A DNA stretch of 32,000 bases from Comamonadaceae bacterium (GCA_947455465.1 CANGNS010000002.1:82424-114423); one strand, 5' to 3'; positions 3,033-31,107 are shown, counted from the first letter of the stretch. The notes: a model not told the origin generated them from the letters alone. Made by a program: numbers and translations.

Positions 3033-3160
3033 TCAGCATATGACATGCTTTTTACCCGTCTTTTTATATCCAATAAAAACAAAAAAATACTTATATATCA
3101 ACAGCTTAGGCATCTTTTTGTCCAAAATAGAATTTTTGCAATTTGACAAATCTGAGGAAA

Positions 3161-3190
3161 AAGTGTATCTTTTAGTGTATCTTTTTTAGA
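3161..3190 (+). repeat. Tandem pair of GTGTATCTTT decamers, a possible integrase arm-type site, 17 nt upstream of the int start
   Basis: AAGTGTATCTTTTAGTGTATCTTTTTTAGA here matches AAGTGTATCTTTGGGTGTATCTTTTTAGA at 26186-26214, in the same orientation and just inside the two island ends. Confidence 0.4.
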
Positions 3191-3206: not shown

Positions 3207-4412
3207 ATGAGCAAACTCAATGCCCTCAAAATCAAGTCAATCAGCAAAATCGGTATGCATTCTGACGGTGGTGGATTGTACTTAAAGGTGCAATCATCAG
3301 CGAAAACTAGCTCAGTAAACAAAAGTTGGATTTTTCGATGGGGAGCAAAAGGCGCAAACACAATGGGGTTGGGGTCGCTCCGAGATGTGTCGCTGTCAGA
3401 GGCAAGGGGGTTAGCAAGCGAGTGTCACAGAATGGTTGCTCGTGGACTAAATCCCCGCGATGAACGTGAAAAACTTAAATCTGAACGGCTCGCAAAAGCA
3501 TCAAGCTCCATCACTTTCATGGCTGCGTCTGAGCAATACATTGAGACTCACCACCACTCTTGGAAAAATGTAAAGCATAAGCAGCAATGGGAGAAAACGC
3601 TTGAAACATATGCCCATCCAAAGATTGGAAATGTATCCTGTGCTGATGTGACAAAGGCGCAGGTGCTTTCAATCTTGAAGCCAATCTGGACTGAGAAGCA
3701 CGAGACTGCAACAAGATTGCGTGGTCGCATTGAATCAGTGCTGGATTGGGCAATAGCTAAAGGCTACAGAACAGAACCGAATCCCGCAGTTCTTAAAGGC
3801 AATTTGCAGCCGCTACTGCCTTACTTGCAAAAGCGTCAGCGCATCAAGCATCACAACGCCATGCACTATGACGATGTTCCCAAATTCTTCGCCACGATCA
3901 AAGACGATCCAACTATTTCGGCCCGTGCACTGGTGTTTTGCTTACTGACAGCGACAAGAACATCAGAAGCAGTGAATGCCACCTGGAAAGAAATTGACTT
4001 TGCGAAAAATACTTGGATCATTCCCAAAGAAAGAATGAAGCGCGGAATTGAGCACCGAGTGCCACTAGCATCTCAGGTGTGTGAGATGCTGGGGTTCATT
4101 AAGAGAGCCAACAATGACTTTGTTTTTTGCAGTGAGGTACGAAAAACTAAACCAATTTCAAACATGACAATGTTGCAATTTCTTCAACGTAAAGAAGGGC
4201 TGGAGAAGCTAACGGTTCATGGGTTTAGATCATCATTCAGAGACTGGGCTGCTGAAAAAGGAAACTTCGCAAGGGAAGTTTGTGAGCAGGCATTGGCTCA
4301 CGCATTGAAAGATCAGACGGAGGCAGCTTATCAACGGGCTGACTACTTTGAGAAGCGGACTGCGTTGATGCAGGAATGGGCAGACTACTGCTTTGGCGAA
4401 AAAAGTAGATGA
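3207..4412 (+). CDS. int: P4-type tyrosine integrase
   Basis: N-terminal arm-binding-type domain (LKIKSISKIGMHSDGGGLYLKV...WIFRW). Catalytic residues lie in LLTATRTSE (R), HGFRSSFRDWA (HxxR) and LAHAL...AAYQRAD (H, Y). Confidence 0.9.
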   Translation: MSKLNALKIKSISKIGMHSDGGGLYLKVQSSAKTSSVNKSWIFRWGAKGANTMGLGSLRDVSLSEARGLASECHRMVARGLNPRDEREKLKSERLAKASSSITFMAASEQYIETHHHSWKNVKHKQQWEKTLETYAHPKIGNVSCADVTKAQVLSILKPIWTEKHETATRLRGRIESVLDWAIAKGYRTEPNPAVLKGNLQPLLPYLQKRQRIKHHNAMHYDDVPKFFATIKDDPTISARALVFCLLTATRTSEAVNATWKEIDFAKNTWIIPKERMKRGIEHRVPLASQVCEMLGFIKRANNDFVFCSEVRKTKPISNMTMLQFLQRKEGLEKLTVHGFRSSFRDWAAEKGNFAREVCEQALAHALKDQTEAAYQRADYFEKRTALMQEWADYCFGEKSR

Positions 4413-4451
4413 ATCAGCCCTCGTTGATTCACCTACTCTTTCTGAGAAGCA

Positions 4452-4643
4452 CTAGCTCTTATTGATAAGAGCCAAGATTTCAGACTCACGCCAGCAAGTC
4501 GTCTTTGGTCCCAGTTTTATGGGCTGTGGAAATCTGCCTTCTGCCACGCCTTGCCACCAAGCCGCTTTTGAGATTGGCAGGTAGCCAAAAGAAGCTCCCT
4601 TCTTGTCACGTACGATATCTTTAACTCTTAATAACTTATCCAT
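4452..4643 (-). CDS. alpA: AlpA-family excisionase/transcriptional regulator
   Basis: 63 aa. LLRVKDIV...ISKAAWWQGVAEGRFPQPIKLGPKTTCWRESEI matches the AlpA/Xis MerR-like HTH signature. The gene is convergent with int. Confidence 0.85.
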   Translation of the reverse strand: MDKLLRVKDIVRDKKGASFGYLPISKAAWWQGVAEGRFPQPIKLGPKTTCWRESEILALINKS

Positions 4644-4702
4644 AAATAAAAACCCTTAAAAATTGCATCATTAAATTATTGAAATTTATACTTCAATTGA
4701 TT

Positions 4703-5218
4703 TTAAGAATTTAATGCCATTAAATTCTCCTCTTCAGTCTCACTACCAACTGACGGACCTGAAATTATTGAAAATCTCTGTGCCGCCCCATCGGAATGGA
4801 TGCGTATTTTTCCAAAACAAACATACCGAAGTTTCTCATTTGAGCAAAATGCAATTTCAATCCATCCAGAATTCAGAAAAGGGGAAATTGCATCTCTGAT
4901 ATCAGATAATGTTGCATCCTCCTCTTCTGATTCATCCACATTATCCCAATCCTCATTATTCATTTCAGAAGGCAATTTTTTATAATCCACATCATCAGTA
5001 TCGCAATAACAATGAAACATGGTGTACTTTGTGGGGGAAACTGTAGGATACTGAGAACAATAATCAGAACGAAAAATTGAATTCTCCTCATCGTCAAAAA
5101 TCCATTTGCCACCCGAAGTATCCCAAACAAAATTATTCAATGCATCTGCAAGCATTGAATAATTAATCTGACATTCGTCTGACTTTGTAAAAGTAAAAAC
5201 GCCATATGAATCAGCCAT
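4703..5218 (-). CDS. Hypothetical acidic protein
   Basis: 171-aa ORF with no competing frame and acidic runs (DNVDESEEEDATLSD, SETEEEN). No family recognised. Confidence 0.55.
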   Translation of the reverse strand: MADSYGVFTFTKSDECQINYSMLADALNNFVWDTSGGKWIFDDEENSIFRSDYCSQYPTVSPTKYTMFHCYCDTDDVDYKKLPSEMNNEDWDNVDESEEEDATLSDIRDAISPFLNSGWIEIAFCSNEKLRYVCFGKIRIHSDGAAQRFSIISGPSVGSETEEENLMALNS

Positions 5219-5556
5219 AAAATCACCTTTATATAAAGTAAACCTACCACTACCTCAATATTTGCCACACCATGCAACAAATTACTTTCAAATCTCAGCG
5301 TAGTCGCTGAAATTGAATCTATGAATGTCGCTTATGAAATCTGATAATTCATAAATCACATCTAGCGACAGATTGCTAAATGGATCGACAGATCAATCTC
5401 TGTCAATGCTAATCATCAATATACTGTCTTTATAATGAATATAATTCATGTTTAATTTCTTACTTGTCTTCATATTTGCTCCAAATTTAATTTAAAAATC
5501 TAAAATATCAAAAGAATCAATTATCTGATTCAGACTCTAGTTTATTGCAAAACACA

Positions 5557-5783
5557 TTTTTTGATAATCTGTTTTGTGTGGACCACTCAACTTGAATAAT
5601 CCACTTGAATCTAAATGATCTAATTGACTCAGGACTCAGTATATAGATAAAGGTGCTTTTTGATAATCTATTCTGCGTGGACCACTCATATTTAAATTAC
5701 CCATCGCGGGACAGATTTCCCTAAATGCAAATATTAATATACCAATTTTGAACTGATTTGATAATGAGTTTATAGTGGACCAA
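5557..5783 (+). promoter_or_regulatory. Three phased copies of TTGATAAT-N9-GTGGACCA(C/A), operator-like
   Basis: TTGATAAT lies at 5561, 5660 and 5758. GTGGACCAC lies at 5578 and 5677, and GTGGACCAA at 5775. The spacer is always 9 nt and copies are 99 and 98 bp apart. GTGGACCAC is a 9-bp palindrome. Confidence 0.5.
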
Positions 5784-6133
5784 GCATGTTTATAAGTAAT
5801 ACGCTTACAGATTAAGGATTACTATAAAAGGAGTTTTTCTGTTCCAAATTGAACAACTTCTATAGCTAAGGGGCGGCGGTCGAAGCTGGTGCACTCGCCA
5901 AAGTAGCCTAGCGAATGTGAATTGAATGCTTTGAGCGATCCAACTTGCGAGCTACTTGCAGCTCAGACAAGTACGAGCATAGGACGCAAAAGTTCAATGG
6001 GATAAGCTGACATCAGTCAGTGCTAACACAATTAGAGCGTTAGACTGAACAAAGTGCTTGACAGATCAGTGTAGTTGATTCACAGTTGAAGACGTGTGGA
6101 CCTTAATATTAATTATGAAAAATACTCATTGAT

Positions 6134-6454
6134 ATGAAAAAAACAATAAGTAAATTAAATGAACATTATTTCATAATTTCATTTTTACTGGCGTCAGGTT
6201 TCGCCAACCCCGCCGCTAGTCAAGATATAATATATCGATGCGGTAAAGAATACACAAATATTATAATTGATCGCAAATATGGAGAATGTATAAGGATAAC
6301 TCTTACCGATAAAGAATGGAAAGATGAGAAAATTCGAATGGATTTATTGCATAAGTGCACCATGGAAGCGGCGAAGGCTCCTACTATGGGTGGCGTAAAT
6401 ATCGGCGTTGAAAGTTGCAAAAAAAGGTATCCTGAAATAATTCGATATCAATGA
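6134..6454 (+). CDS. Small secreted Cys-containing protein, hypothetical
   Basis: N-terminal signal-like segment MKKTISKLNEHYFIISFLLASGFANPAASQ. No family recognised with confidence. Confidence 0.5.
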   Translation: MKKTISKLNEHYFIISFLLASGFANPAASQDIIYRCGKEYTNIIIDRKYGECIRITLTDKEWKDEKIRMDLLHKCTMEAAKAPTMGGVNIGVESCKKRYPEIIRYQ

Positions 6455-6553
6455 TCAATATTTTTATTTAAGATTAAAAAATGCAGTCCTATTAAATGTT
6501 TACATAAAAAATATATTGCATACAAAAATATATTGATATAACGACCATAATAG

Positions 6554-7279
6554 ATGGAATCGCAAATGAAAAATCCACCATGGTCACGTGACGAACACAT
6601 AGTTGCACTTGACTTTTACTTGAAGCATACGCCGCAGATTCCTGGCAAAGAATCAAAGGAAGTAATTCAGCTTAGCGAACTACTAAACAACATTGAAGGC
6701 AAGATTCAAGGCGATAGGACTGAGACTTATCGCAATCCTGCAGGTGTCTACATGAAGTTAATGAACTTCCGAAGGTTTGATCCAGGATACAAAGGCGTGG
6801 GTCTTGCAAACGGAAGTAAAGATGAACAGGTTGTTTGGGATCTGTACGCAAATAAGAAAGACGAACTTTCAAAGTTGGCTGTACAAATTGCACTTTTCAT
6901 GGCGTCAAATGAAGTCAAAGAAACGCTACCTGCTTTAGAGGCTGATGAGGAAGAAGGCAACGAAGGACAATTGCTTAGTAGAGTGCATCGCTATCGTGAG
7001 CGAGATCGGAAATTAGTCAAAAAGGCAAAAGATAAATTTGCGAATGAAAATGGTCGCATATTTTGTCAAGCATGTGGATTTGACTTTGAAACGAAATATG
7101 GTTCAAGAGGTGCAGATTTCATTGAATGTCACCACACTAAGCCCGTTTCTGAACTAGAGGCTAACGGGAAGACTAAAGTCGCTGATCTAGTCCTTCTTTG
7201 CTCAAATTGCCATCGCATTGTTCATAGACGCAAGCCATGGCTAACATTCGCTGAATTGAAGGCTCAGTTGCAACATTAG
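6554..7279 (+). CDS. HNH endonuclease of the predicted restriction endonuclease (COG3183-like) type
   Basis: The C-terminus reads RVHRYRERDRKLVKKAK...CQACGFDFETKYGSRGADFIECHHTKPVSEL...DLVLLCSNCHRIVH. The N-terminal domain reads PPWSRDEHIVALDFYLKH...YMKLMNFRRFDP...SKDEQVVWDLY, as usual for this family. Confidence 0.85.
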   Translation: MESQMKNPPWSRDEHIVALDFYLKHTPQIPGKESKEVIQLSELLNNIEGKIQGDRTETYRNPAGVYMKLMNFRRFDPGYKGVGLANGSKDEQVVWDLYANKKDELSKLAVQIALFMASNEVKETLPALEADEEEGNEGQLLSRVHRYRERDRKLVKKAKDKFANENGRIFCQACGFDFETKYGSRGADFIECHHTKPVSELEANGKTKVADLVLLCSNCHRIVHRRKPWLTFAELKAQLQH

Positions 7280-7291
7280 CCAATAAAAGAG

Positions 7292-8290
7292 TTGTTCGTG
7301 AAATACCAAGAACTTCAACACTTCATCGCATCTGAGATGCGAATGTCACAAATCTATCAGCCAATCATGTTGATTGAGTTGCTAAAGAACAATGGTAGTG
7401 CATCAGTCAATCAAATCGCTCAAGCAATCCTCAACAAAGACCCAACACAGATTGAGTACTTCTCACTTATAGTGAAGAACATGGTTGGCAAGGTTCTGAC
7501 GAAGAATCGTGGTATCACGGAAAAGAATAAAGACACATACACTTTGATTGGCAGTGATGGACTCACAACTGATCAAATCAAATTATTGATTGATCTTTGC
7601 CAACAAAAGATTGATGAGTTTGAACAAAAGCGCGGCGACAGCGTGTGGAGTCATCGTAGGCGTGGACACAGACCAATTAGTGGATCAGTCAGATATGAAG
7701 TTCTCAGCCGTGCGAAGGGACGTTGCGAACTGTGTGGCATTTCTAATGAAGAGAAGATGCTCGAAGTTGATCACATCTTTCCAAAGTCGCTTGGTGGCAA
7801 AGATGAACTGTCCAACTACCAAGCACTTTGCTATTCGTGCAATGCTGCGAAACGCAATACAGACGACACAGACTTTCGCTTGTTCAAGACCATGTACGAA
7901 CATCGTGAAGCGAATTGTTTGTTCTGCGACGTTCAGTCGAATGATAGATCACGTATCGTCAGCGAGAATAATTTAGCGTATGCGATGCGTGATGGATTTC
8001 CAGTCACGCACGGTCATACATTGTTCATCCCCAAGCGCCATGTGTTGGACTACTTTGGATTGACTCAGGCAGAGACAAACGCGGTGAATAGTCTCATACA
8101 GGAGCAGAAGAAATTATTGCAAGCTAGCGATAAGAGTATTGATGGGTTCAACATTGGCATGAACTGTGGCTCAAGTGCTGGGCAGACAGTCTTTCACTGC
8201 CATGTGCATCTAATCCCTAGACGCGCTGGCGATGTTGAGAATCCGCGTGGTGGCGTTAGACATGTGATCAGTGGTAAAGGCTATTACTGA
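7292..8290 (+). CDS. Three-domain fusion: N-terminal winged-helix-like region, HNH nuclease, C-terminal HIT (histidine triad) domain
   Basis: HNH motif: CELCGISNEEKMLEVDHIFPKSLGGKDELSNYQALCYSCNAAKRN. HIT motif: FPVTHGHTLFIPKRHV...GFNIGMNCGSSAGQTVFHCHVHLIPRRAGD. The start is uncertain: TTG at 7292, GTG at 7298 or ATG at 7337. Confidence 0.85.
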   Translation: MFVKYQELQHFIASEMRMSQIYQPIMLIELLKNNGSASVNQIAQAILNKDPTQIEYFSLIVKNMVGKVLTKNRGITEKNKDTYTLIGSDGLTTDQIKLLIDLCQQKIDEFEQKRGDSVWSHRRRGHRPISGSVRYEVLSRAKGRCELCGISNEEKMLEVDHIFPKSLGGKDELSNYQALCYSCNAAKRNTDDTDFRLFKTMYEHREANCLFCDVQSNDRSRIVSENNLAYAMRDGFPVTHGHTLFIPKRHVLDYFGLTQAETNAVNSLIQEQKKLLQASDKSIDGFNIGMNCGSSAGQTVFHCHVHLIPRRAGDVENPRGGVRHVISGKGYY

Positions 8291-8379
8291 AACCGCATGT
8301 GACTCCATGCCCAACGTTTTTTTAATTTTTATGATGTGCCACTCCATCAAGTCTTGATGAATAACATGACGAGGTTGCT

Positions 8380-8697
8380 ATGACTCAAATCTATGCACGA
8401 AAAAACTTTCGACTACCCGAAAAAGTTTCAAGCGACATCATCTCACAGTGGCAAGAATTGCTCCACGATGCAGCAATCGAAGGTGGAGGCTTTGATGATA
8501 TCGATGTTTTTTACTCTGAAAAAGAAAGAGTCATCGGGGTAAGCGTTCCGATTGAGAATGACCTTATGCTGACACTTGAAGCTGGCGCCATTCTTGGCTA
8601 CGTTACAGCTGAAGTGAACAGATCAGAGCTATATTCACTAGAGCGCTGGATGTCGGTTCATGACGAAAATGGTGATGTGATTGAGTCGACACTTTGA
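8380..8697 (+). CDS. Small acidic hypothetical protein
   Basis: 105 aa with a GAGG RBS upstream (acgaggttgctATG). By my count it has about 20 D/E against 8 K/R. No family recognised. Confidence 0.55.
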   Translation: MTQIYARKNFRLPEKVSSDIISQWQELLHDAAIEGGGFDDIDVFYSEKERVIGVSVPIENDLMLTLEAGAILGYVTAEVNRSELYSLERWMSVHDENGDVIESTL

Positions 8698-8720
8698 TTT
8701 CGGTAATAGGATGAAGTAAC

Positions 8721-8795
8721 GATGTTGAGACCCCACGTGGTGGCGTTAGGCATGTGATCAGTGGCAAGGGGTATTACGAAGTGAAAGACGAATGA
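8721..8795 (+). pseudogene. Orphan 3' fragment of a second HIT-domain gene
   Basis: 8721-8777 matches 8231-8287, the end of the HNH-HIT gene, at 50 of 57 nt. It encodes DVETPRGGVRHVISGKGYY against DVENPRGGVRHVISGKGYY. An in-frame TGA lies at 8712-8714 just upstream, so no intact ORF exists. Confidence 0.65.
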
Positions 8796-8857
8796 TCTTG
8801 GCTGACGATAATTCAAATTAACTATGTTGGGTAATGAAATTCAGAGAGATTCGATAA

Positions 8858-11671
8858 GTGACATCTAAGCACGGTCAGGCATCATTACTAATTTCACAAG
8901 GCGTCTTTGCCTCGGTGAAGACGTTTCGTGAATTTGAGCAGCGTGTGTCCAATTTATTTCAGACAAATACAAAGGCTCAAGGTGATGCGTTTGAAATTTT
9001 CGTTGAAGCCTATCTAGCAACTCAGCAAATACTGCAATGCCAAGAAACCTGGCTGGTAGGTGACATACCAGTTCACGTTCGGGAAAAACTTAATCTGCCA
9101 AACGACTCGAAAGGGATTGACGGCGTCTATAGGTCAATGTCCGATGACTTCGTTCCCTATCAAGTCAAGTTTCGTTCAAATAGACCCGCAATGGGATTCA
9201 ATGAAGTTGCGCCTTTTCTTGGCATCACAGAACGAGCAAGTGATCGACTATTGATCACAAACTGTGACACCATAGCAATCGATGTCAAGAATAGGACGGG
9301 AATACGATCACTGCGTGGTTTTGACTTCGATTCACTAAGCGAAGAGGACTTCTTAGTCATAGAGAACTGGCTCAATAAAAAGCCAGTTAAGCGAAAGCCA
9401 CTGACGCCAGATCCATATCAAGTCGAAGCGTTAGATGCCATTGCGAAGCATCTTGAACACAACGACAGAGGAACAGCGGTCATGGCTTGCGGCACTGGCA
9501 AGACACTCGTGGCATTGTGGGCAGTAGAACAAAGCAATGCAAAAACGATTCTTGTCTTAGTTCCCTCGCTGACTTTATTGCAGCAAACATTAGAGGAATG
9601 GAGTGTTCACAACTCGTGGGGTAAAGACTTTTCTTATCTTTGCGTCTGTAGCGATCCTTCAGTAAATCTAAAGAATGATGAGATTGAAATCGATCCCTCA
9701 GATGTACCCTTCAGAATCGATACAGACCCTGAGATAGTTAGACGCTACCTAGCCCAAGATAACGGCAAAACTAAGATAGTTTTTTCGACCTATCAAAGTA
9801 GCCAAGTTGTCAGCCAAGCGACCAAAGGTGTTTTTGAATTTGACATAGCTGTCTTCGACGAAGCACATAAAACTACGGGATCAGCTGAAGGTAGATTTGC
9901 TCTTGCCCTTAGCGATGAAAACGTAAAAATAAAGAAGCGTCTATTTCTAACCGCTACACCAAAGCATTACGACATTAGTAAACGAGATAAAGATGGTGAG
10001 TTCAAATTTGTCAGTATGGACGATGAATCGGTTTACGGCAAAAGGGCGCATACGCTTACCTTTGGTGATGCTGCAGCCAAAGGAATCATCTGTCCCTACA
10101 AGGTTGTGATTACTTTAATCAATAAGCAAAAAGTTGATGACTTTGCCTTGAAGAACGGAATCACTTTGGTCGAAGGTGACTCTGTCAAAGCCAAGTGGGT
10201 AGCGAGTCAAATCGCCGTTAGTAGTGCGATCAAGCACACAATCGCAACAAAAATTATTACCTTCCACAGTCGTGTAAAAACCGCTCGTGAGTTTGCTAGT
10301 GGTGAGGTCTACGGAATCAAGAAGTTTGTTGATGACTTTGAGGTTTTTCACGTTCACGGCAAGCAAAAAAGTAATGAACGTAAAGATACGATTTCGAAAT
10401 TTAGAAAATCTAGTCGCTCAATCATCACCAACGCTAAGTGTCTAACAGAAGGCGTTGATGTCCCAGCAGTGGATATGGTGGCTTTCGTTGACCCTCGTCA
10501 CAGCAAGATCGATATCGCTCAAGCTGTTGGTAGGGCAATGAGAAAACCAAGAGGCGGAAGTAAAACGGTCGGCTATATCGTTGTTCCCGTTTTTGCTGAA
10601 GATGCCACAGAGCAGTCACTTGAAAGAGCAATTAAGAGTGAGGAATTTAACGATGTTGCTCTAATTTTGAATTCATTATTGGAGCAAGATGAAGAGTTGG
10701 TCGAAATAGTCCGAGAGTTAAAGCAGGCGAAGGGTCGAGGCGAGGTATTTAATCCACAAAGATTCAAAGAGAAAATTGAGGTTATTGGACCGCTGATTAA
10801 ATTAGATGAGTTAACAAATAGTATTTACGTCGAAGTTGTCGATCGTTTAGGTGAGTCGTGGGATGAATCATATGGAAAGTTAAAGAAATTCAAAGACGAA
10901 AATGGTCATTGTCGTGTTCCACAATTGGATTCAGGCAAGAAATCAACATTAGGTCATTGGGTAGCTACACAGAGACGCGCCAAATTAACTTCAACATTGT
11001 CAGAAGACCGTATTAGCAGACTGGACAAACTGAACTTCGCTTGGGATTCATTCGATCAAAAGTGGGAAGAAGGATTCACTGCGCTAGTTGCATTCAAGAA
11101 ACGAAACGGTCATTGCATCGTCCCAAAAGGATATATAGAAAATGGAATTCAGCTCGGCTCTTGGGTTCGAACCAAACGAGCGAGCAGAAAAGATTTAACT
11201 TTGTCAGAAGAGAATATTTCTTCCCTAAATGCCATTGGGTTTATTTGGAAACCCAATGAGGATGCTTGGGAAGAAGGATTTAATGCTCTTGTTGTGTTCA
11301 AACTAAGAGAAGGACATTGCCTTGTCCCTAAGGATCATATTGAAAAAGGGTTCAATCTAGCAAGTTGGGTGCGCAATCAACGGTCTCATAAAACGAACTC
11401 GAAACTATCAGCTGAGAGGACTCGCCGTTTGAATGAAATGGGTTTCGTATGGAATCAGCTAGAGCAGAAGTGGGATGAGCACTTTCAAGCACTTTGCGTC
11501 TTTGAAAAGCAAAATGACCATTGCTTAGTACCAGTCAGTTATACGATAAACGGAATTAATCTTGGGTCTTGGGTACATACGCAAAGGCGTGAATACGGAA
11601 GCAAAAGATTGTCTACCGACCGACAAAATAAATTAGAGGTGTTGGGATTCACCTGGAAAATTAAAAATTGA
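8858..11671 (+). CDS. N-terminal PD-(D/E)xK-like nuclease, SF2 DEAH helicase (ResIII type) and four C-terminal helicase-associated (HA) repeats
   Basis: GTG start. Nuclease-like region: GDAFEIFVEAYL...KGIDGVY...YQVKF. Helicase motifs: I AVMACGTGKT, II VFDEAHKT, III LFLTATP, V/VI CLTEGVDVPAVDMVAF...AQAVGRAMR. Four HA repeats follow, of the form W(D/E)E.F..L..F....GHC.VP......LG.WV..QR. Confidence 0.9.
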   Translation: MTSKHGQASLLISQGVFASVKTFREFEQRVSNLFQTNTKAQGDAFEIFVEAYLATQQILQCQETWLVGDIPVHVREKLNLPNDSKGIDGVYRSMSDDFVPYQVKFRSNRPAMGFNEVAPFLGITERASDRLLITNCDTIAIDVKNRTGIRSLRGFDFDSLSEEDFLVIENWLNKKPVKRKPLTPDPYQVEALDAIAKHLEHNDRGTAVMACGTGKTLVALWAVEQSNAKTILVLVPSLTLLQQTLEEWSVHNSWGKDFSYLCVCSDPSVNLKNDEIEIDPSDVPFRIDTDPEIVRRYLAQDNGKTKIVFSTYQSSQVVSQATKGVFEFDIAVFDEAHKTTGSAEGRFALALSDENVKIKKRLFLTATPKHYDISKRDKDGEFKFVSMDDESVYGKRAHTLTFGDAAAKGIICPYKVVITLINKQKVDDFALKNGITLVEGDSVKAKWVASQIAVSSAIKHTIATKIITFHSRVKTAREFASGEVYGIKKFVDDFEVFHVHGKQKSNERKDTISKFRKSSRSIITNAKCLTEGVDVPAVDMVAFVDPRHSKIDIAQAVGRAMRKPRGGSKTVGYIVVPVFAEDATEQSLERAIKSEEFNDVALILNSLLEQDEELVEIVRELKQAKGRGEVFNPQRFKEKIEVIGPLIKLDELTNSIYVEVVDRLGESWDESYGKLKKFKDENGHCRVPQLDSGKKSTLGHWVATQRRAKLTSTLSEDRISRLDKLNFAWDSFDQKWEEGFTALVAFKKRNGHCIVPKGYIENGIQLGSWVRTKRASRKDLTLSEENISSLNAIGFIWKPNEDAWEEGFNALVVFKLREGHCLVPKDHIEKGFNLASWVRNQRSHKTNSKLSAERTRRLNEMGFVWNQLEQKWDEHFQALCVFEKQNDHCLVPVSYTINGINLGSWVHTQRREYGSKRLSTDRQNKLEVLGFTWKIKN
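10859..11668 (+). repeat. Four in-frame tandem coding repeats of exactly 204 nt (68 aa), the HA domains
   Basis: The Trp codon that opens each repeat sits at 10859, 11063, 11267 and 11471, a constant 204-nt period. Confidence 0.8.
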
Positions 11672-11790
11672 GTTCAAAGTTAGTTTTACGGTTGCTTACT
11701 CCAACTGAGCTAACCTCATAGAACGGATACGCTAAGAGTACGCTCTCACAACATGACTGATTACCATTGATTAGCACTGAACTTTCCGCA

Positions 11791-12444
11791 CTATATTGCT
11801 GTGGACGTACGAATCACTCTATCCAACCACTGATAGTATTTTCTGTTGTCTTGAGATATCTTGTATACCGTGCTAAGTCCATCAAGCAAAATATCGTCAT
11901 CGTATTCGACTGAGACTGAGTCAAGGATTTTCTTGGCATATGGCAGGAAAATTTGTGGTGCGCATGGTGGGACATGCAAAATCTCACATCTGCTTCTAAT
12001 TCCAGCATCAACTTCTTCAAGACGATTCGTGCTGAGAATCGTCAAGTCTGTGCCAAGTGTCTCGTCAAGTTCAATCTTCATCGCATCTGACATAGCAGCT
12101 TTACTCATCAAGAACTCTTCAATGATGATGTAGTTGAATTTCTGATCATTGATAGTGAAGTTCTTGTTGATCATCTTGTTTCTCCCATACAAGTCGTGAA
12201 TGTCAGATGCGTTCTTGAGATCGCTAGATCTGACTTTCTGAAATTGTGCTTCTTTCCGTTCTATGGCGTTTGGTAGCAGTCGCTGAATCAGTGACTTGCC
12301 TGTGCCACTTGTTCCATGCAACAGTAATGGCGCTTCAAGTTCTCCACTCGCATAGGCAAACACTACTTCACTGACTTCGCTGTTGGGATAGACGATTTCG
12401 TGAATAGATTTTGGCGAGTAATTTTTAATGGTTGAGATGATCAT
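11791..12444 (-). CDS. AAA+ ATPase, clamp-loader/RFC-like
   Basis: Walker A LLLHGTSGTGKS, Walker B YIIIEEF, sensor-1 ILSTN, and the SRC motif GIRSRCEIL characteristic of RFC/clamp-loader AAA+ proteins. Confidence 0.75.
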   Translation of the reverse strand: MIISTIKNYSPKSIHEIVYPNSEVSEVVFAYASGELEAPLLLHGTSGTGKSLIQRLLPNAIERKEAQFQKVRSSDLKNASDIHDLYGRNKMINKNFTINDQKFNYIIIEEFLMSKAAMSDAMKIELDETLGTDLTILSTNRLEEVDAGIRSRCEILHVPPCAPQIFLPYAKKILDSVSVEYDDDILLDGLSTVYKISQDNRKYYQWLDRVIRTSTAI

Positions 12445-12498
12445 TTTTTGTATTTGGTTAGATGAGTGAGCTGTTGTTGCAGCTCACTCGTTCAAGAC

Positions 12499-13488
12499 TT
12501 AGATTGCTTTCTCTCGTGTTGTCGAAATCTCTGCTTCAATACGATGCTTTCTAAAGAGAGTTGTTAGCGAGTCGGCGATTGCATACATGGCTTCGTCTGA
12601 TGGTTTTCTGTTGAAGCGAATGACGACTGAGTAGGGTTCGTCACTGTGTTCGTCTTCAGCAGCAGCTTCAACATTGAGACTTGCAGACTGTGAGACACGC
12701 TCAAGCATGACTGATGCAGCACTTGCTTCAAAATCTTGGCCAGACTTTTCTGGCGCAGTGTCAATCGATACAGTGCTGTCACTGACAGTCTCAGAAGCGC
12801 AGGAAACACTTGAATTTGCAGCGTCGTGAGCATCTGTGTGCTCGTCAGTCTGTTCATCGCTCGCAGCGTCTACAGACACTTCTGTGTCTTTTGAGACGCT
12901 AGGTAAAGCAGGCGCGGTGACGCTTGCTGAGGGCATCGTCGGTGTCGCTGGCGATGTGTCAGGTTTGCTTGATTTGTCAGACGAGTCATTGCCCCTGAGC
13001 AACTTGAGCTGAGCACCAGTCAGATGCGCCATGCTCTCGCCCATTGCGACCATCGCCATGAACACGTCAGGGGGAATCTGCGTGATCTCGTAGATGCTCG
13101 TCCAAGACGAGGGCAACAAGTTTGTGGCAGCGATCAAGTCGTCATAGCGTTCGCCAATCGCAAGAAACTTGCGAACTGTTGAGTCTTCAGACTTACGACC
13201 CACGTCTTTCAAGAAGCAGTCGTACTCAGACTTTGCGAGCGTGTTTTTCGCTTCAAAAACGATGCGACACATCTCGATTGTTGACTGAGCAGTCTTTACA
13301 GCGAATTTTGAATATTCGTTGTAAAGACGCTCACGTGCAGTTACGTGATGCTCGATGACTATTCCATCATCAGTTTCAAAGACACTTATTTGACCAAGAC
13401 CATTCTCTAACTCAGAAGTCGAAGAGTTATTGTCGATATCAATGTTTGTTCCATTTTGAACAGATTCATTTTGTGTGTATTCAATCAT
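12499..13488 (-). CDS. Hypothetical protein: helical N-terminal domain (DUF3102-like?) and an acidic Ser/Thr/Asp-rich C-terminal half
   Basis: CRIVFEAKNTLAKSEYDCFLKDVGRKSEDSTVRKFLAIGERYDDL resembles phage/plasmid DUF3102-type helical domains; this resemblance is weak. The C-terminal region is low complexity. Confidence 0.6.
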   Translation of the reverse strand: MIEYTQNESVQNGTNIDIDNNSSTSELENGLGQISVFETDDGIVIEHHVTARERLYNEYSKFAVKTAQSTIEMCRIVFEAKNTLAKSEYDCFLKDVGRKSEDSTVRKFLAIGERYDDLIAATNLLPSSWTSIYEITQIPPDVFMAMVAMGESMAHLTGAQLKLLRGNDSSDKSSKPDTSPATPTMPSASVTAPALPSVSKDTEVSVDAASDEQTDEHTDAHDAANSSVSCASETVSDSTVSIDTAPEKSGQDFEASAASVMLERVSQSASLNVEAAAEDEHSDEPYSVVIRFNRKPSDEAMYAIADSLTTLFRKHRIEAEISTTREKAI

Positions 13489-13496
13489 ATTAATCC

Positions 13497-14159
13497 TTAA
13501 GCCAAGCCAACTTCAGCACGAATTTTTTTGCTACTAGTCACGAAATGATCTAGTTCGTAACCACATTTCTGATGAATGTCCCCATTTGCATCAAAATAGA
13601 ACAACGAAGACCATGATCCATTAACTAACATTTCTAAATCGCAGTTGCGCAAGATGACATCATTCTCAGCAACCCAGAACTTATGTATGTTGTCACCAAC
13701 CAGAGTTGCTGACTCTTCTAAGGCAGCAATAATTGGTTTTTTTATGTTATTTTTTCTGTAATCACACATAGTCCATTTTTCAAATCGTGCATCACCTGCG
13801 TTGAACTTGAAACGATAAATTCCTCCAATATGTTTTGCAAGTTCATTCCAATCTACAGTAGGTTTAACCACGCCTGTATGATTTAGCATGTTTGTAGCAG
13901 GCATGCTTGAAATGAGTGGCATTGCTGTTACAGGATAATTATTTGATTCAGTTAACCAAACAAAATTCTTTCGCTGCATTAATTTCAACAGTCGCTCGTC
14001 TTTTAGAAATCCAGTGGAGTTCTCAAGAATGATTTTCCCACTCTCAATAATTTTGCAGATATGAATACCCTTTGTATAGTGATATACAGACTTGAATTTA
14101 GCGCAAGCCATTTTTCGATTTATACGAGCACGAAGTTGCATTTTCTTTGTAGTAGACAT
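13497..14159 (-). CDS. Hypothetical protein
   Basis: 220-aa ORF separated by 8 nt from the downstream gene of the same operon. No family recognised. Confidence 0.6.
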   Translation of the reverse strand: MSTTKKMQLRARINRKMACAKFKSVYHYTKGIHICKIIESGKIILENSTGFLKDERLLKLMQRKNFVWLTESNNYPVTAMPLISSMPATNMLNHTGVVKPTVDWNELAKHIGGIYRFKFNAGDARFEKWTMCDYRKNNIKKPIIAALEESATLVGDNIHKFWVAENDVILRNCDLEMLVNGSWSSLFYFDANGDIHQKCGYELDHFVTSSKKIRAEVGLA

Positions 14160-14503: not shown

Positions 14504-14590
14504 AATTTCCTTCTTTCTTTCAGTTAATATAAAACACAAATTTGAATCAACTATTTGATTCAGACTCTATTATATGCAATACTGCATATT

Positions 14591-14714
14591 TTGATAATTC
14601 AATATTCGTGGACCACGCATCTTGAATAATCAATTGAATCTAAATGATTTAATCGACTCAGTATGTATTATATAGGCTCGGTGATTTTTTATTAATCAAT
14701 AATATGTGGTCCAG
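14591..14714 (+). promoter_or_regulatory. Two phased copies of the TTGATAAT-N9-GTGGACCAC motif, second locus
   Basis: TTGATAAT at 14591 with GTGGACCAC at 14608. TTATTAAT at 14689 with GTGGTCCAG at 14706. The spacer is 9 nt in both and the copies are 98 bp apart. The site lies in the divergent intergenic region between the 14503 (-) and 14795 (+) starts. Confidence 0.45.
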
Positions 14715-15557: not shown

Positions 15558-16745
15558 ATGAACGCACAACTGTGGACAAAAGTAACTGTTATTGCTGATG
15601 CGTTGAAATATTCTTCGATTAGTGAGTGGCGCAAACATAGTTCTTCAGCCTATGCAATTTGTTGCAGAAACAAGTGGAATGAAGAAGCCTGCGCCCATAT
15701 GTCCAAGAAAAAACAGGCAAACGGATTCTGGACTGACGAGAAGGTTCTTGCTGAATCTCGTAAGTTTTCATCAACTGCAGATTGGGCTGCAACGAGCCCT
15801 TCCTCATATGTTGTCGCAAAGCGGAAGAAGCTTGTCCCCACAACAATGCCTAGAGCGTTAGTTCATAACCAATGGACTAAATCACAAGTAGCTAAGGTCG
15901 CAAAAGAATTCAAGACTCGTGGAGAATTTAGAAGTACGCAGCCAAGTGCATACTCCATAGCAATTAGCAACGGCTGGCTTGATGATGTCTGCGTTCATAT
16001 GTTGAACACAGCACCATGGTTTGGTCCCAGAGTAATTAGAGAGTTTTTAATCGCACACGATATAGAATTCATCGCTGAGCATAAGTTCAATACTGATTCA
16101 GTGGTCAAAAGATACCCATTTGACTTTTACTTACCGAAGTTAAATTGCCTTATTGAATATCAAGGAAGACAACATAAGGATGGTTGGTTCAAGGATTTAG
16201 CTGATGCAAAGGCGATTCAGTTGCGAGATAAATCAAAACGATCATTTGCAGCAGAGCAAGACATAAATTACCTTGAGTTAGATCAGCGAACAAGGAAGGT
16301 GTTGTTGGAAACATTACGTTTGGAACTTAAGAAAATTGCTGAGATCGTAGGCGTTAGATACAGTGATGCACCAAGGCAACTTACAGAGGCTGAGTTGAGT
16401 GAAATTGAAACAGCATTCAAGTGGAATCATAAGTCAGTAAAAGAAGTTATTGATACTTGTACGTCACTTAAAGAATTCCGTCAGAAGTATCCATCAGCAT
16501 ATGACTACGCTTTGAAAAACGATTTATTGAAGAGCTTGGGTAGTGATCTAGCTAGAATCACAGTGCACGGAAAATACACCAAAAAATATGTGACGGAGGT
16601 TGCTGTAACTTGTACCACAAGAAACGAATTCAAAGTCAAAAACAAAGGCGCCTGGGCTGCTGCTCAGCGCAATGGGTGGCTTGATGAAGTATGCGCTCAC
16701 ATGCCAAAGCATGTTCAAAGGAAAAATAAGCAATCTGATCTTTAA
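15558..16745 (+). CDS. PD-(D/E)xK (Vsr/DUF559-like) nuclease core flanked by five ~35-aa repeats
   Basis: Core: RYPFDFYLPKLNCLIEYQGRQH. Repeats include SEWRKHSSSAYAICCRNKWNEEACAHM, GEFRSTQPSAYSIAISNGWLDDVCVHM, KEFRQKYPSAYDYALKNDLL and NEFKVKNKGAWAAAQRNGWLDEVCAHM. Confidence 0.65.
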   Translation: MNAQLWTKVTVIADALKYSSISEWRKHSSSAYAICCRNKWNEEACAHMSKKKQANGFWTDEKVLAESRKFSSTADWAATSPSSYVVAKRKKLVPTTMPRALVHNQWTKSQVAKVAKEFKTRGEFRSTQPSAYSIAISNGWLDDVCVHMLNTAPWFGPRVIREFLIAHDIEFIAEHKFNTDSVVKRYPFDFYLPKLNCLIEYQGRQHKDGWFKDLADAKAIQLRDKSKRSFAAEQDINYLELDQRTRKVLLETLRLELKKIAEIVGVRYSDAPRQLTEAELSEIETAFKWNHKSVKEVIDTCTSLKEFRQKYPSAYDYALKNDLLKSLGSDLARITVHGKYTKKYVTEVAVTCTTRNEFKVKNKGAWAAAQRNGWLDEVCAHMPKHVQRKNKQSDL

Positions 16746-16794: not shown

Positions 16795-17091
16795 ATGACA
16801 ACACTAAAAGAACTCATTGCACAACGTGAAGCACTTGAAAAGCAAATCGCTGAAGTGCGCCAAACTGAACTTGCAGATGCAATTGCAAAAGTTCGTGCAT
16901 TGATCACTGAATTTGGACTGACTCAGTCAGACATCTTTGGTGGCACGGCGAAGGTGCGTAAAGTCAAAGATGCAACGAGCAAAGTTGCTGCTAAGTACCG
17001 TGACCCGATTTCTGGCAAAGAATGGTCTGGACGTGGACTCGCACCAAAGTGGTTGCAAGGCAAAGACAAGTCTCAGTACCTGATCGCTTGA
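16795..17091 (+). CDS. H-NS family nucleoid-associated protein
   Basis: N-terminal coiled coil (LKELIAQREALEKQIAEVRQ). The C-terminal DNA-binding motif is AAKYRDPISGKEWSGRGLAPKWL. Confidence 0.85.
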   Translation: MTTLKELIAQREALEKQIAEVRQTELADAIAKVRALITEFGLTQSDIFGGTAKVRKVKDATSKVAAKYRDPISGKEWSGRGLAPKWLQGKDKSQYLIA

Positions 17092-17154: not shown

Positions 17155-17754
17155 TCACAGCAAATTAACACTCGCTCTGAGCAGCTGGGGATTTGTATCC
17201 ACATATTTCATCGTGACAGCAGGGCCACTGTGCCCTGCCAATTCCATCAACACACGCACTGAAACGCCCTTGTTAGACAGAGCAGTCAAAAAACCACGCC
17301 GTGCGCTATGTGAACTCGCTCCAGCAATCCCAGCACTCTTGTACATGTAGTGAAAGTGCTGAGCGAGCGTAGACGCTGTGAAGCCCCTGTCTGGGTGCTT
17401 CTGACTGCTAAACAGTGCACGACTTGTGTCTGTGAATGTCACTGGGACTAGATCTTTGAGCTTGAAGCGCACTTGCAGGTAGTTCTTGATCTCTTCTTGC
17501 GCTTTGTCTGACAGAAAGACTGTGCGTCCCTTTGAGCCCTTCGTCATCTGTGCTGAAAGATAGATCTCTTCACGAATTTCACCCTCACTCGTGAGTACAT
17601 CAGCGAGACGAAGCGCAGCGAGTTCTCCAACTCGCATCCCAGTTAAATTTAAGACTGTGAACATTGCACGATTTCGTGCTGCGTGTTTCTTTGTTGCGAT
17701 CGACAACAATACTTTGCGAATTTCTCGCTCATTTAATACTTTAGCTTGCGGCAT
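17155..17754 (-). CDS. Short (199 aa) tyrosine recombinase, catalytic domain only
   Basis: TGMRVGELAALRLADV (R), KGSKGRTVFL (K), HSARRGFLT (HxxR), LAGHSGPAVTMKYV (H, Y). There is no N-terminal SAM-like or arm-binding domain. Confidence 0.85.
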   Translation of the reverse strand: MPQAKVLNEREIRKVLLSIATKKHAARNRAMFTVLNLTGMRVGELAALRLADVLTSEGEIREEIYLSAQMTKGSKGRTVFLSDKAQEEIKNYLQVRFKLKDLVPVTFTDTSRALFSSQKHPDRGFTASTLAQHFHYMYKSAGIAGASSHSARRGFLTALSNKGVSVRVLMELAGHSGPAVTMKYVDTNPQLLRASVNLL

Positions 17755-18738: not shown

Positions 18739-19179
18739 ATGGCTACTCAACTTAGTTCACTGAAGATCACAAATGTCGTGCGTCAAAACAAGACGAACAC
18801 GAACGAGTTTCGCAAAACGAAACTGATCAAGAAGTTGGATGAACAAATTGGTCTTGCGACTGCACAGAAGAACGGCGAGTTGTTCACAGTCAAGCGACTG
18901 AAGAATGTCAAAGACGAAGCTAGTGGAGCATCAAGTCAGATTGAAGTGTCAAAGCGCATCAACGCTTGGTTCTGGACTGATAACAACAAGACTTACTTGC
19001 AGATCAAGTACGGGACCAAAGTGCTTGATCTACAGAAGGGAAAGAACACGATTGAGTGTGCAAGTCAGGACGAACTGATCAAGACATTACTCTTGATTAA
19101 GAGTGCTGTTGCTAGTGGGGAGCTAGATGCAGTGATTGAAGCTGCAAGTGTGAAGGTGCGAGAGCGATTCAAGAGGTAA
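18739..19179 (+). CDS. Hypothetical protein
   Basis: 146-aa ORF followed by a terminator. No family recognised with confidence. Confidence 0.6.
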   Translation: MATQLSSLKITNVVRQNKTNTNEFRKTKLIKKLDEQIGLATAQKNGELFTVKRLKNVKDEASGASSQIEVSKRINAWFWTDNNKTYLQIKYGTKVLDLQKGKNTIECASQDELIKTLLLIKSAVASGELDAVIEAASVKVRERFKR

Positions 19180-26005: not shown

Positions 26006-26187
26006 TGCCTGCTGATCAGTTTGAAATTCAATGGACTTGTGGGGCAGATTTAGTCCCAGAAATGAAAGCTACTTGTGCAACATGCGATGCGTCAAGATTC
26101 ATCGACATGGAAAGCTTGCCCAAACAACTTATCGGTGATAAATTGTTCTGTTTTGCCTATTTTTTCAGCAATAGACCAAGCGAATAA
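26005..26187 (+). CDS. Hypothetical small protein
   Basis: 60 aa. Its ATG overlaps the upstream stop (TGATG). Its stop abuts the terminal GTGTATCTTT repeats. Confidence 0.4.
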   Translation: MPADQFEIQWTCGADLVPEMKATCATCDASRFIDMESLPKQLIGDKLFCFAYFFSNRPSE

Positions 26188-26214
26188 GTGTATCTTTGGG
26201 TGTATCTTTTTAGA
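26186..26214 (+). repeat. Tandem pair of GTGTATCTTT decamers, a possible integrase arm-type site, tRNA-proximal end
   Basis: AAGTGTATCTTTGGGTGTATCTTTTTAGA is a direct copy of 3161-3190. It lies 50 nt inside the att core. Confidence 0.4.
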
Positions 26215-26263: not shown

Positions 26264-26277
26264 TGGCGGAAGCTGTG
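26264..26277. repeat. att core copy forming the 3' end of tRNA-Ser
   Basis: TGGCGGAAGCTGTG, identical to 3019-3032. Confidence 0.75.
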
Positions 26278-26353
26278 AGATTCGAACTCACGGAGGACTC
26301 ACATCCTCGCCGGTTTTCAAGACCGGTGCCTTAAACCGCTCGGCCAAGCTTCC
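26264..26353 (-). tRNA. tRNA-Ser (anticodon UGA)
   Basis: The reverse complement is GGAAGCTTGGCCGAGCGGTTTAAGGCACCGGTCTTGAAAACCGGCGAGGATGTGAGTCCTCCGTGAGTTCGAATCTCACAGCTTCCGCCA. It has acceptor stem GGAAGCT/AGCTTCC and anticodon stem CCGGT/ACCGG with loop CTTGAAA. It also has a long variable arm GAGGA/TCCTC, T arm GTGAG-TTCGAAT-CTCAC and an encoded CCA. Confidence 0.95.
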
Positions 26354-28514: not shown

Positions 28515-28925
28515 GCACGCACCGGGCCACGGGCCGTTGCACCAACTAACAGGGTTAAACCGCTTGTAGCTAAGCGCGGCGATGTGCTAAGGTATTCATT
28601 GTTTATTTGACAATAATTGCCAACCAAGCCCATGCCCGCCCTGAACGCCTCAGATCTAACGACTCCCCACCCTAAAAGCAGCTCGCTGCTGCATGACGCG
28701 CTGTACCAGCTAATGCGCGAAGGCCTGCTGGACCACGCCATCCGCTGCGAAGACGGCATGACGGTGCTGAGCGCCTGATGGGTTTGTCAGGGCGTGCGCC
28801 TGTTTGGCAACCCGGCCTCGGACCCGGCGCAGCAGAGGCCGGTGTTGTGGGCGCCGGGGGGGGTTAGGAATGATCAATAACCCTTCACAGTTCTTGTTTA
28901 GAAATATTGAGAGGAGATAAACCAA

Positions 28926-29483
28926 TTGGCCGTCACAAAACCAATACGCCCTAAATTGAGTGAGCGGGACCGAGTAAGACGAACCACAATATTGGCCTTG
29001 AGATGCTTAACCAATATTGCTTTTTATAGAAGCGGCGTGGGAAAACTAACCGATGCATCTCAGCAGGAATTCTATAGAGTTGCAAATTCGAACAATTTTG
29101 ATATCGCGGTATTGGAATGGTTTAAGGTTTTCGGAGAACGGAACGGCGAGCATCATTGGCGAAATATATTTTCCATTGACCCATTCAGCGAATATCTTTT
29201 ATCAAGCTTAAAAATTAGTCAAGGGGAATTTAGTAATTACATTAACGAAGTCGCCACTTACCGCAATACTTTTATCGCACACCTAGACGACTCATATATT
29301 ATGAATATACCAAACCTGGACACCATGCATCAATGCATGATTTTTTTACTCAATCAAATGCACAACAAAAACACATACAAGATGCATTTATCACCAAATC
29401 TTATTTCATGCCCCGAAAAAAATTACGATAGACTTTTGGAGTTAGGGGAGCAAATATATAATAATATTTTATATGCCAATTAA
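28926..29483 (+). CDS. Hypothetical protein with a HEPN-like RNxxxAH motif (Abi-type?)
   Basis: TTG start. The ORF is AT-rich. EVATYRNTFIAHLDD fits the Rx4-6H (RN...AH) motif of Abi-associated HEPN families. The family call is tentative. Confidence 0.5.
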   Translation: MAVTKPIRPKLSERDRVRRTTILALRCLTNIAFYRSGVGKLTDASQQEFYRVANSNNFDIAVLEWFKVFGERNGEHHWRNIFSIDPFSEYLLSSLKISQGEFSNYINEVATYRNTFIAHLDDSYIMNIPNLDTMHQCMIFLLNQMHNKNTYKMHLSPNLISCPEKNYDRLLELGEQIYNNILYAN

Positions 29484-29650
29484 ATATAACAAACCAATAT
29501 AGTGACCGCCATCTAAAGGGCACACAAATAAGATTAACAATCGAACACATAAAAAATCCCGCACTTTAATTTAATGTGACTTTTCGGACAATAAATGAGC
29601 ATGTCTGTCCGGAATCTCAATCAACATCCGCAATTAATTAACTTACCAAC

Positions 29651-30172: not shown

Positions 30173-30181
30173 ACATTATTT

Positions 30182-31024: not shown

Positions 31025-31107
31025 CAGGGTGATATATTGGTCGATTAGAGTGACGGCTATTGCTAGCCGACTTATATACGGAATGTTATTCAGTTAATTA
31101 AATCGTT

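Follow-up and report, generated by a model that had tools for sequence, protein, structure and literature searches.

Type ISP restriction-modification (R-M) enzymes consist of a nuclease, a superfamily 2 (SF2) ATPase, a coupler, a methyltransferase, and a domain for DNA recognition (PMC4666363), and the motifs of the Mrr-family nuclease have been defined by mutagenesis in LlaGI (PMC2790908). For CglI, the parts of the published accounts drawn on here describe a recognition-nuclease subunit that works with a separate SF2 helicase-like subunit (PMC5861437, PMC5737866). In the PbeABCD system, PbeA, which carries an HKD nuclease and an SF2 helicase, is joined by PbeB, the ABC ATPase PbeC, and the DndE-like PbeD (PMC10853773). 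ThsC, a histidine-triad (HIT) protein, is listed as an accessory of PADLOC's "Thoeris type II" (PMC8565338), and TtrA, described as a putative DEAD-box helicase, is required in the conjugation of the Streptomyces linear plasmid SLP2 (PMC8743542). Here, we analyze a cluster of four genes at positions 6554–11671 of a 32,000-nucleotide stretch of DNA from a Comamonadaceae bacterium (GCA_947455465.1, CANGNS010000002.1:82424–114423; the whole stretch is referred to as the window). On the independent distribution of the genes, their defense-type neighborhoods, and their domain identities, we consider the cluster to be, on balance, island cargo made up of three autonomous nuclease-type defense candidates and one passenger, rather than one multi-gene system.

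Gene order and domain composition of the cluster

The cluster comprises four plus-strand open reading frames (ORFs), at 6554–7279 (241 aa), 7292–8290 (332 aa), 8380–8697 (105 aa), and 8858–11671 (937 aa), with intergenic gaps of 12, 89, and 160 nucleotides (nt). Gene 2 starts with TTG, and its N-terminus aligns with homologs from residue 1; gene 4 starts with GTG. Gene 1 (6554–7279) encodes a helical N-terminal domain (residues ~1–120) and a McrA-like HNH domain (171–226; Pfam HNH, E = 2.5e-10), and gene 2 (7292–8290) encodes a winged-helix (wH)-like domain (1–115), an HNH domain (145–195; Pfam HNH_5, E = 4.4e-13), and a Fhit/Hint-type HIT domain (218–312; Pfam HIT, E = 6.5e-20). The third gene (8380–8697) encodes a small acidic protein with an isoelectric point of 4.3, and gene 4 (8858–11671) encodes an Mrr nuclease (~21–170, nt 8918–9367), an SF2 motor (~175–627, nt 9380–10738), and four HA repeats (668–937, nt 10859–11668). 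A preliminary description, made from the sequence alone, had delimited the same four ORFs to the nucleotide, and its domain calls (two HNH domains, winged helix, HIT, PD-(D/E)xK-like nuclease, SF2 DEAH helicase, and HA) were all correct, the HNH, HIT, helicase, and HA domains being confirmed by Pfam. PADLOC assigned no named system to the set.

Distribution of the HNH-HIT and helicase families

We collected about 25 related loci, corresponding to approximately 12 contexts per family and originating mostly from freshwater metagenomes, with short contigs included. In these loci, the full-length wH-HNH-HIT proteins are 61% to 92% identical and the full-length helicases are 66% to 87% identical. 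The two families are largely found apart. HNH-HIT occurs without the helicase in 10 of the 12 distinct contexts, namely 3 metagenomic loci (L001, L002, and L003), metagenome-assembled genomes of Comamonadaceae, Polynucleobacter, and Methylophilaceae (L007, L008, and L009, respectively), loci L183, L185, and L186, and the P0003 contig; its closest relatives, in L183 (92% identity) and on the P0003 contig (85%), have entirely different neighbors. The helicase occurs without HNH-HIT in 9 of 11 informative contexts (L090, L093, L094, L095, L097, L098, L099, L101, and L102), with neither an HNH-HIT gene nor a relic of one upstream, 2 further loci (L096 and L184) having been left out of the count for too short an upstream sequence. 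Among these unaccompanied helicases are close ones, including those of L101 (87% identical) and L094 (82%). HNH-HIT directly upstream of the helicase was found only in the window's island and in L100.

Several further observations concern the independence of the genes. None of the 77 HIT-only genome loci has the helicase within 10 kb, and no fusion of HNH-HIT to the helicase is present among the best 120 homologs of either family. Outside the window's island, gene 1 and the small acidic gene occur with neither HNH-HIT nor the helicase; the 4-gene block is identical in L087–L089, which are the same island and not independent instances. In a small neighbor-joining tree built from the nuclease-motor cores, linked and unlinked copies do not fall into separate groups, and both the HNH-HIT and the helicase proteins are intact and highly conserved when found alone. 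The preliminary description had proposed a functional system of four genes and named a lack of conserved co-localization of the HNH-HIT and helicase homologs as an outcome that would speak against it; with the two families apart in 10/12 and 9/11 contexts, that lack is largely what we found.

The neighborhoods of both families are rich in defense-type genes. Helicase homologs neighbor Zorya ZorB, ZorC, and ZorD genes (L090), a match to UzuA (L095; E = 8e-76), and an SLFN_AlbA_2 (Schlafen/AlbA_2) gene (L184), and the neighbors of wH-HNH-HIT genes include an AIPR abortive-infection gene (L001), PIN/FitA and YafQ (L002), toxin-antitoxin pairs, and genes of the GIY-YIG and staphylococcal-nuclease (SNase) types. 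The sites occupied by HNH-HIT and the helicase are hotspots in which autonomous genes follow one another head to tail, in many cases right behind an integrase at the start of the cargo. In L095, a full-length PADLOC match to UzuA (GIY-YIG) has the upstream HNH gene on one side and the helicase on the other and overlaps with each of them. Tight spacing and a shared strand therefore do not indicate a unit in these islands. The HNH gene of L095 belongs to a recurrent pair, consisting of a 205-aa class-I S-adenosylmethionine (SAM) methyltransferase and a 341–357-aa HNH-motif protein (C-x2-C...DH...C-x2-C-N), that is located upstream of the helicase in 3 loci (L095 1946–4459, L097 618–2262, and L098 1773–3417); the L095 and L097 copies are 58% identical in the methyltransferase and 66% identical in the HNH-motif protein. 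This methyltransferase, a small class-I enzyme, has matches of the TehB/Methyltransf_11 type and belongs to no recognized DNA methyltransferase family. In L090 (9484–15384), the helicase homolog (74% identity) stands back to back with a Zorya-like set of SNF2+Mrr_cat (ZorD-like), EH_Signature (ZorC-like), and MotB_plug (ZorB-like) genes, with HNH_2 and Imm_superinfect genes upstream.

History of the HNH-HIT/helicase junction

Between the small acidic gene and the helicase, the plus strand at 8720–8795 retains the last 24 codons and the stop codon of an older HNH-HIT gene. Over 58 nt, this relic (8720–8777) is identical to the end of the intact gene (8230–8287) at 51 positions (88%). Its frame (8721–8795) translates to DVETPRGGVRHVISGKGYYEVKDE followed by the stop codon, which is the normal C-terminal tail of the HNH-HIT family. 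The usual end of the family is ...GKGFYEDKK, and the intact gene of the window ends early, with ...GKGYY; the relic thus holds an authentic HNH-HIT 3′ end. In L100, a 3.7-kb metagenome contig, an intact 336-aa HNH-HIT gene is followed by the helicase without any gap, the TAA stop codon directly preceding the ATG start codon (junction TAAATG). Because of the relic and the L100 junction, HNH-HIT directly upstream of the helicase is a genuine earlier arrangement in the window lineage and in part of the helicase family.

The small acidic gene sits in a 432-nt segment that splits this older junction. Its family is real but rare, with 32 representatives, all of ~100–110 aa except for one of 74 aa and one of 1086 aa, and its alignment was too variable for a locus search. 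The protein has no match in Pfam, NCBIfam, PADLOC, PHROG, or, by profile search, the PDB, and the gene is absent from every other HNH-HIT or helicase locus collected. It is probably a passenger brought by the rearrangement that left the relic. In the ancestor, HNH-HIT would have stood immediately ahead of the helicase, the order still seen in L100; recombination with a related island would then have introduced a second HNH-HIT allele and, with it, the small acidic gene, so that 76 nt of the old 3′ end remained. The relic itself had been noticed before, and the earlier gene order deduced from it holds; its further use as proof of a functional unit was rejected, because an unrelated gene has since divided the junction and neither ORF was lost. 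The relic is evidence of adjacency in the ancestry of this lineage only.

HNH-HIT proteins

The gene 2 protein has 5811 homologs, the best 120 of which are all full-length and 73% to 92% identical. Its HNH domain displays the CxxC...CxxC and DH motifs and its HIT domain the motif HCHVHLIPRR, in which H302-C-H304-V-H306-L-I-P corresponds to the HxHxHxx signature; matches of this domain to HIT proteins in the PDB reach E = 6e-17. The zinc-finger cysteines and the DH motif of HNH and the HIT triad H302/H304/H306 are invariant in an alignment of 36 sequences. An AlphaFold2 model built on this low-diversity alignment was poor (predicted local distance difference test score [pLDDT] of 52) and confident over the N-terminal 115 residues only, for which it suggests a winged-helix-like fold, with weak matches to forkhead and ORC winged helices; a Foldseek search of the PDB with the model returned no significant match.

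Gene 1 has 1186 homologs, most of ~238 aa and labeled McrA by automatic pipelines. Its HNH profile matches the HNH domain of EcoKMcrA in 6ghc, and in the AlphaFold2 model (pLDDT 75) the HNH part resembles Cap5; the all-helical N-terminal domain of the same model matched no fold in the PDB. With a sensor-type domain preceding HNH, gene 1 is predicted to be an autonomous, methylase-less Type IV-like nuclease candidate. Some of its relatives carry a C-terminal HIT domain (P0265, P0297, P0304, P0312, and P0314; 368–376 aa, 62% to 65% identical to gene 1), and this HIT domain is nearly identical to that of gene 2. In L187, a gene-1-type HNH-HIT fusion (8001–9131) is the first gene after a 418-aa gene and is followed by an HU gene and a DruA-domain gene.

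The HNH-HIT module thus occurs with two different N-terminal domains, the winged helix and the helical domain of gene 1, which speaks for joint action of HIT and HNH in a single polypeptide. The pairing is a conserved unit in which both catalytic centers are invariant, and HNH-HIT is an abundant, strongly conserved fusion without prior characterization. No description of an HNH-HIT fusion in defense or restriction was found in PADLOC-DB v2 or the searchable literature, where HNH and HIT together yielded nothing beyond the PADLOC paper. The preliminary description had recognized HIT as a component of no named anti-phage system; given PADLOC's listing of ThsC, HIT already has some place in defense catalogs. 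Neither full-length HNH-HIT proteins nor relatives of the helicase were detected on the viral contigs of IMG/VR, in which only HIT-only phage proteins were matched, so that both families appear to be island genes rather than phage-borne ones; the plasmid collection likewise contained no full-length HNH-HIT.

In a mechanism suggested by this architecture, the winged helix of gene 2 would place the protein on DNA and the HNH domain would cut. The HIT domain would handle a nucleotide-phosphate bond, either in an adenylylated DNA end or in a nucleotide of the dinucleoside-polyphosphate type that gates the nuclease by being hydrolyzed or sensed. The HIT step is the least certain part of the mechanism.

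The Mrr-SF2-HA protein

Residues 21–627 of the gene 4 protein align with residues 13–661 of LlaBIII (4xqk; E = 1.1e-55) and, in the same phmmer search, the protein matches LlaGI (5ffj; E = 8.5e-49). Pfam identifies ResIII/DEAD (183–369), Helicase_C (458–562), and four HA domains (E = 4e-79), and the best PADLOC match is REase_MTase_IIG (E = 2.3e-79), restricted to positions 19–653 of the 1646 in the model. The nuclease is an Mrr-type PD-(D/E)xK variant, the residues F45-E46, D83..G86-I87-D88, and Q102-V-K104 being essentially invariant across 120 homologs, and the motor carries the motifs GTGKT (212), DEAH (334), TATP (365), and QAVGR (555). The helicase singled out in the preliminary description is therefore not an orphan combination of folds, but the nuclease-motor half of Type ISP enzymes.

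Because a methyltransferase and a target-recognition domain are absent and four HA repeats stand in their place, gene 4 is, as judged from its domains, a Type ISP-derived nuclease-motor protein without self-marking and not a member of Type ISP. By homology with LlaGI and LlaBIII, it would translocate on double-stranded DNA by ATP hydrolysis and cut with the Mrr nuclease. Without a methyltransferase or target-recognition domain, loading would proceed through the HA repeats, for which DNA binding is predicted, and discrimination would not rely on host methylation of a target site. We infer all of these steps, for gene 2 as for gene 4, from homology and architecture. In the plasmid collection, 821 records match the helicase at less than 60% identity, the top matches being 30% to 34% identical, and HA-domain helicases on Streptomyces plasmids account for 420 records.

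Weighing of alternative explanations

Several points weigh against a mosaic of autonomous genes. Two loci, that of the window lineage and L100, the latter with zero gap, have HNH-HIT directly before the helicase, and for families this rare such adjacency exceeds genome-wide chance. More broadly, an HNH-type gene lies upstream of the helicase in 5/11 informative contexts (the window's island, L100, L095, L097, and L098), a hint that the two may form an optional partnership. The loci sampled are few, drawn mostly from freshwater metagenomes and partly from short contigs, and the label "defense" is a prediction from domain content and neighborhood. These points lead to a different proposal, in which the Mrr-SF2-HA motor teams up with whichever DNA-binding HNH protein is encoded upstream to form an optional two-component restriction enzyme similar to CglI/NgoAVII; the partner would be wH-HNH-HIT in the window and L100, and the 341–357-aa HNH-motif protein with the SAM methyltransferase in L095, L097, and L098. 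That the 5/11 upstream genes come from two HNH families, that the TAAATG junction of L100 leaves no space between the partners, that the relic makes the adjacency older than the present arrangement, and that helicases on separate branches of the small neighbor-joining tree have retained the methyltransferase and HNH pair upstream of them are all in line with this proposal, and CglI, as far as the accounts drawn on here describe it, provides a precedent (PMC5861437, PMC5737866). However, both partners occur singly, in intact and conserved form, more often than as a pair; the UzuA gene of L095, inserted between HNH gene and helicase with overlaps on both sides, implies that abutting genes need not cooperate; the helicase has its own conserved nuclease and no obvious need of a second; and the upstream methyltransferase is not of a recognized DNA methyltransferase family. 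We regard the two-component enzyme as unlikely. Far less credible, and highly improbable in our estimate, is that all four genes form one undescribed defense system. The shared strand, the short gaps, and the identical block in L087–L089 would fit such a system, but the latter loci are one island, no further HNH-HIT or helicase locus contains gene 1 or the small gene, the HNH-HIT proteins closest to that of the window (92% and 85%) have entirely different neighbors, and the small gene lies in the 432-nt segment interrupting an older junction.

The genes could also serve the mobile element itself, with the helicase acting in transfer or replication in the manner of TtrA and the HNH proteins in homing, excision, or packaging. 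Very often, HNH-HIT comes early in the series of genes behind an integrase (L007, L100, L183, and L186), it is unusually well conserved (73% to 92% identity), HA-domain helicases abound on Streptomyces plasmids (the 420 records above), one such plasmid, SLP2, requires TtrA for conjugation (PMC8743542), and neither family has full-length relatives in IMG/VR, as befits island rather than phage genes. Yet the intact Mrr nuclease is of a restriction type, and the protein is closest to Type ISP enzymes rather than to replicative or transfer helicases; both genes occupy variable positions among known defense genes in islands with different integrases; and the L101 helicase adjoins host mod genes, with no island backbone within 7 kb upstream, on a contig that ends inside the helicase. 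A role in the mobile element is therefore, in our view, distinctly unlikely.

We thus return to the mosaic of three autonomous nuclease-type defense candidates and a passenger. A more specific form of it is possible, although we hold it only tentatively: HNH-HIT, with either N-terminal domain, would be a new single-gene class of anti-phage nucleases in which an active HIT domain adds a nucleotide-dependent step, and Mrr-SF2-HA would be a methylase-free descendant of Type ISP that acts alone or is recruited by an upstream HNH partner. The nucleotide-dependent step would be the adenylylation or deadenylylation of the cut DNA end, or a nucleotide-gated licensing of HNH. If the genes do act individually, they add two new candidate members to the single-protein nuclease defenses. 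An HNH enzyme that always comes with an intact HIT nucleotide hydrolase or transferase would raise the question of what HIT does in DNA restriction, and the HA domain, long uncharacterized, would gain a role open to testing, as a module that loads the enzyme on DNA or recognizes it. For genome scanning, the locus carries a caution: matches to single-gene defenses are so densely packed in these freshwater betaproteobacterial islands that they overlap, and short gaps on a shared strand are no sign of a unit.

The island and its other genes

The cluster lies, as had been described, inside an integrase-bearing island. The GC content is 0.33–0.46 from ~3000 to ~26000, compared with about 0.63 in the flanks (window GC scan). 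A P4-type tyrosine integrase is encoded on the plus strand at 3207–4412 (Pfam Arm-DNA-bind_3, Phage_int_M, and Phage_integrase), followed by AlpA at 4452–4643. Imperfect 30-nt direct repeats (repeat family D6, 90% identity) are located at 3157–3186 (GAAAAAGTGTATCTTTTAGTGTATCTTTTT), just before the integrase, and at 26182–26211, just before a tRNA-Ser gene (26264–26353), and each copy contains GTGTATCTTT twice. Given the GC drop and the tRNA-Ser gene adjoining the right copy, the pair is likely to delimit the island or to contain integrase-binding sites (candidate attachment or arm-type sites). Apart from the tRNA, an Rfam search found nothing, and the promoter and terminator scan gave counts no higher than the shuffled expectation; by eye, a weak hairpin with a T-run can be seen at 8295–8323, just 3′ of the HNH-HIT gene. 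Intergenic elements of ~90–100 nt with the core TTGATAAT...GTGGACCAC are arranged as tandem pairs in two divergent intergenic regions, with one pair (5514–5700) preceding the plus-strand cargo block that starts at 6134 and the other (14533–14675) preceding 14795. These elements may serve the island as common operator or promoter modules.

The cargo block opens with a small plus-strand ORF at 6134–6454, whose translation has a signal-peptide-like N-terminus of secreted or lipoprotein type. Small, mutually non-homologous ORFs with signal-peptide or lipoprotein-like features flank HNH-HIT genes in many islands (L001 7253–8001; L002 7086–7352 and 9002–9415; L007 8282–8827 and 9848–10255), and some of them share 4 nt with the end of the HNH-HIT gene, overlapping its stop codon. 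Immediately downstream of the helicase, the minus strand (11791–12444) encodes a truncated clamp-loader-like AAA+ protein of 217 aa (PHROG clamp loader, E = 1e-11). Since similar genes are present in L003 (by Pfam) and L097 (26% identity), this gene seems to belong to the island backbone, outside the cluster.

Farther downstream, a 395-aa nuclease-like ORF (15558–16745) belongs to no Pfam family and has matches to PHROG families of homing endonucleases and HNH endonucleases (E = 6e-19 to 6e-17); an H-NS-like gene (16795–17091) comes next. A short tyrosine recombinase of 199 aa is encoded at 17155–17754 and a DUF6641 protein at 18739–19179. The recombinase recurs in the L093, L097, L098, and L185 islands at 43% to 68% identity and the DUF6641 protein in L093, L097, and L098 at 40% to 57%, and the two resemble a backbone module for a family of islands with variable cargo slots. 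A second low-GC patch (0.36–0.39), at ~28900–31050 among high-GC host genes, contains ORFs of 185, 173, and 280 aa without a Pfam family and may be another small insertion.

Comparison with known systems

Classical Type I and Type III R-M systems include a separate methyltransferase (and specificity) gene. No methyltransferase or HsdS-type family was detected among the island ORFs scanned with Pfam, NCBIfam, and PADLOC, several of which match no family at all, so a novel methylase may still be among them. On both counts, the absence of a detectable methyltransferase in the island and the distinction from Type I/III R-M, we agree with the preliminary description.

Genes 1 and 2 are closest in layout to McrA-type and other HNH Type IV enzymes, with which they share an N-terminal DNA-binding or sensor domain followed by HNH and for which no cognate methylase was found; the comparison of the two genes with PADLOC's mREase_IV yields weak matches. 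They differ from Type IV enzymes in N-terminal domains that match no SRA, SBD, EVE, or other recognized modification reader and, in gene 2 and some gene-1 relatives, in an additional HIT domain that is predicted to be catalytically intact. The HIT domain of gene 2 matches the ThsC model of PADLOC's Thoeris type II (E = 2.7e-10), but ThsC is a free-standing HIT protein, whereas HIT is fused to HNH in gene 2, and among the ten island proteins scanned (3207–14159) PADLOC found neither ThsA nor ThsB/TIR. On some actinobacterial plasmids, HIT genes do stand beside TIR genes (matches H3, H4, and H10).

With CglI/NgoAVII, the analogy lies in a DNA-binding nuclease gene (wH-HNH-HIT, or the methyltransferase and HNH pair) placed just upstream of an SF2 motor. 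In the CglI accounts drawn on here, the H subunit, a DEAD-Z1 motor, has no nuclease, and the nuclease of the R subunit is not HNH; the systems are likened by layout, and the pairing at the present loci is not conserved. The HA-domain plasmid helicases, among which we place TtrA, presumably a carrier of HA domains, share with gene 4 the succession of an SF2 helicase and HA repeats; the Pseudomonas plasmid relatives match gene 4 only from residue 187 on and thus are without the N-terminal Mrr nuclease.

Gene 4 has in common with Type ISP enzymes both the Mrr nuclease (motif I FE, motif II D-x-G-x-D, and motif III QxK) and the SF2 motor. The γ-family N6-adenine methyltransferase and the C-terminal target-recognition domain of Type ISP are absent from it, and the supplementary Asp of motif II precedes the catalytic Asp by five residues in gene 4 rather than by four. 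The logic of a nuclease, an SF2 motor, and a recognition module is common to gene 4, the SauUSI-type ATP-dependent Type IV enzymes, and PbeA, which matches the helicase core of gene 4 (E = 6e-26); the PbeA nuclease is HKD, whereas that of gene 4 is Mrr, and no matches to PbeB–PbeD were found. The core also matches the mREase_IV model PDLC03658 (E = 4e-10), and, like the PbeA match, this one covers the helicase core only. By analogy, it is the ATP-dependent Type IV enzymes that gene 4 would resemble in its mode of action.

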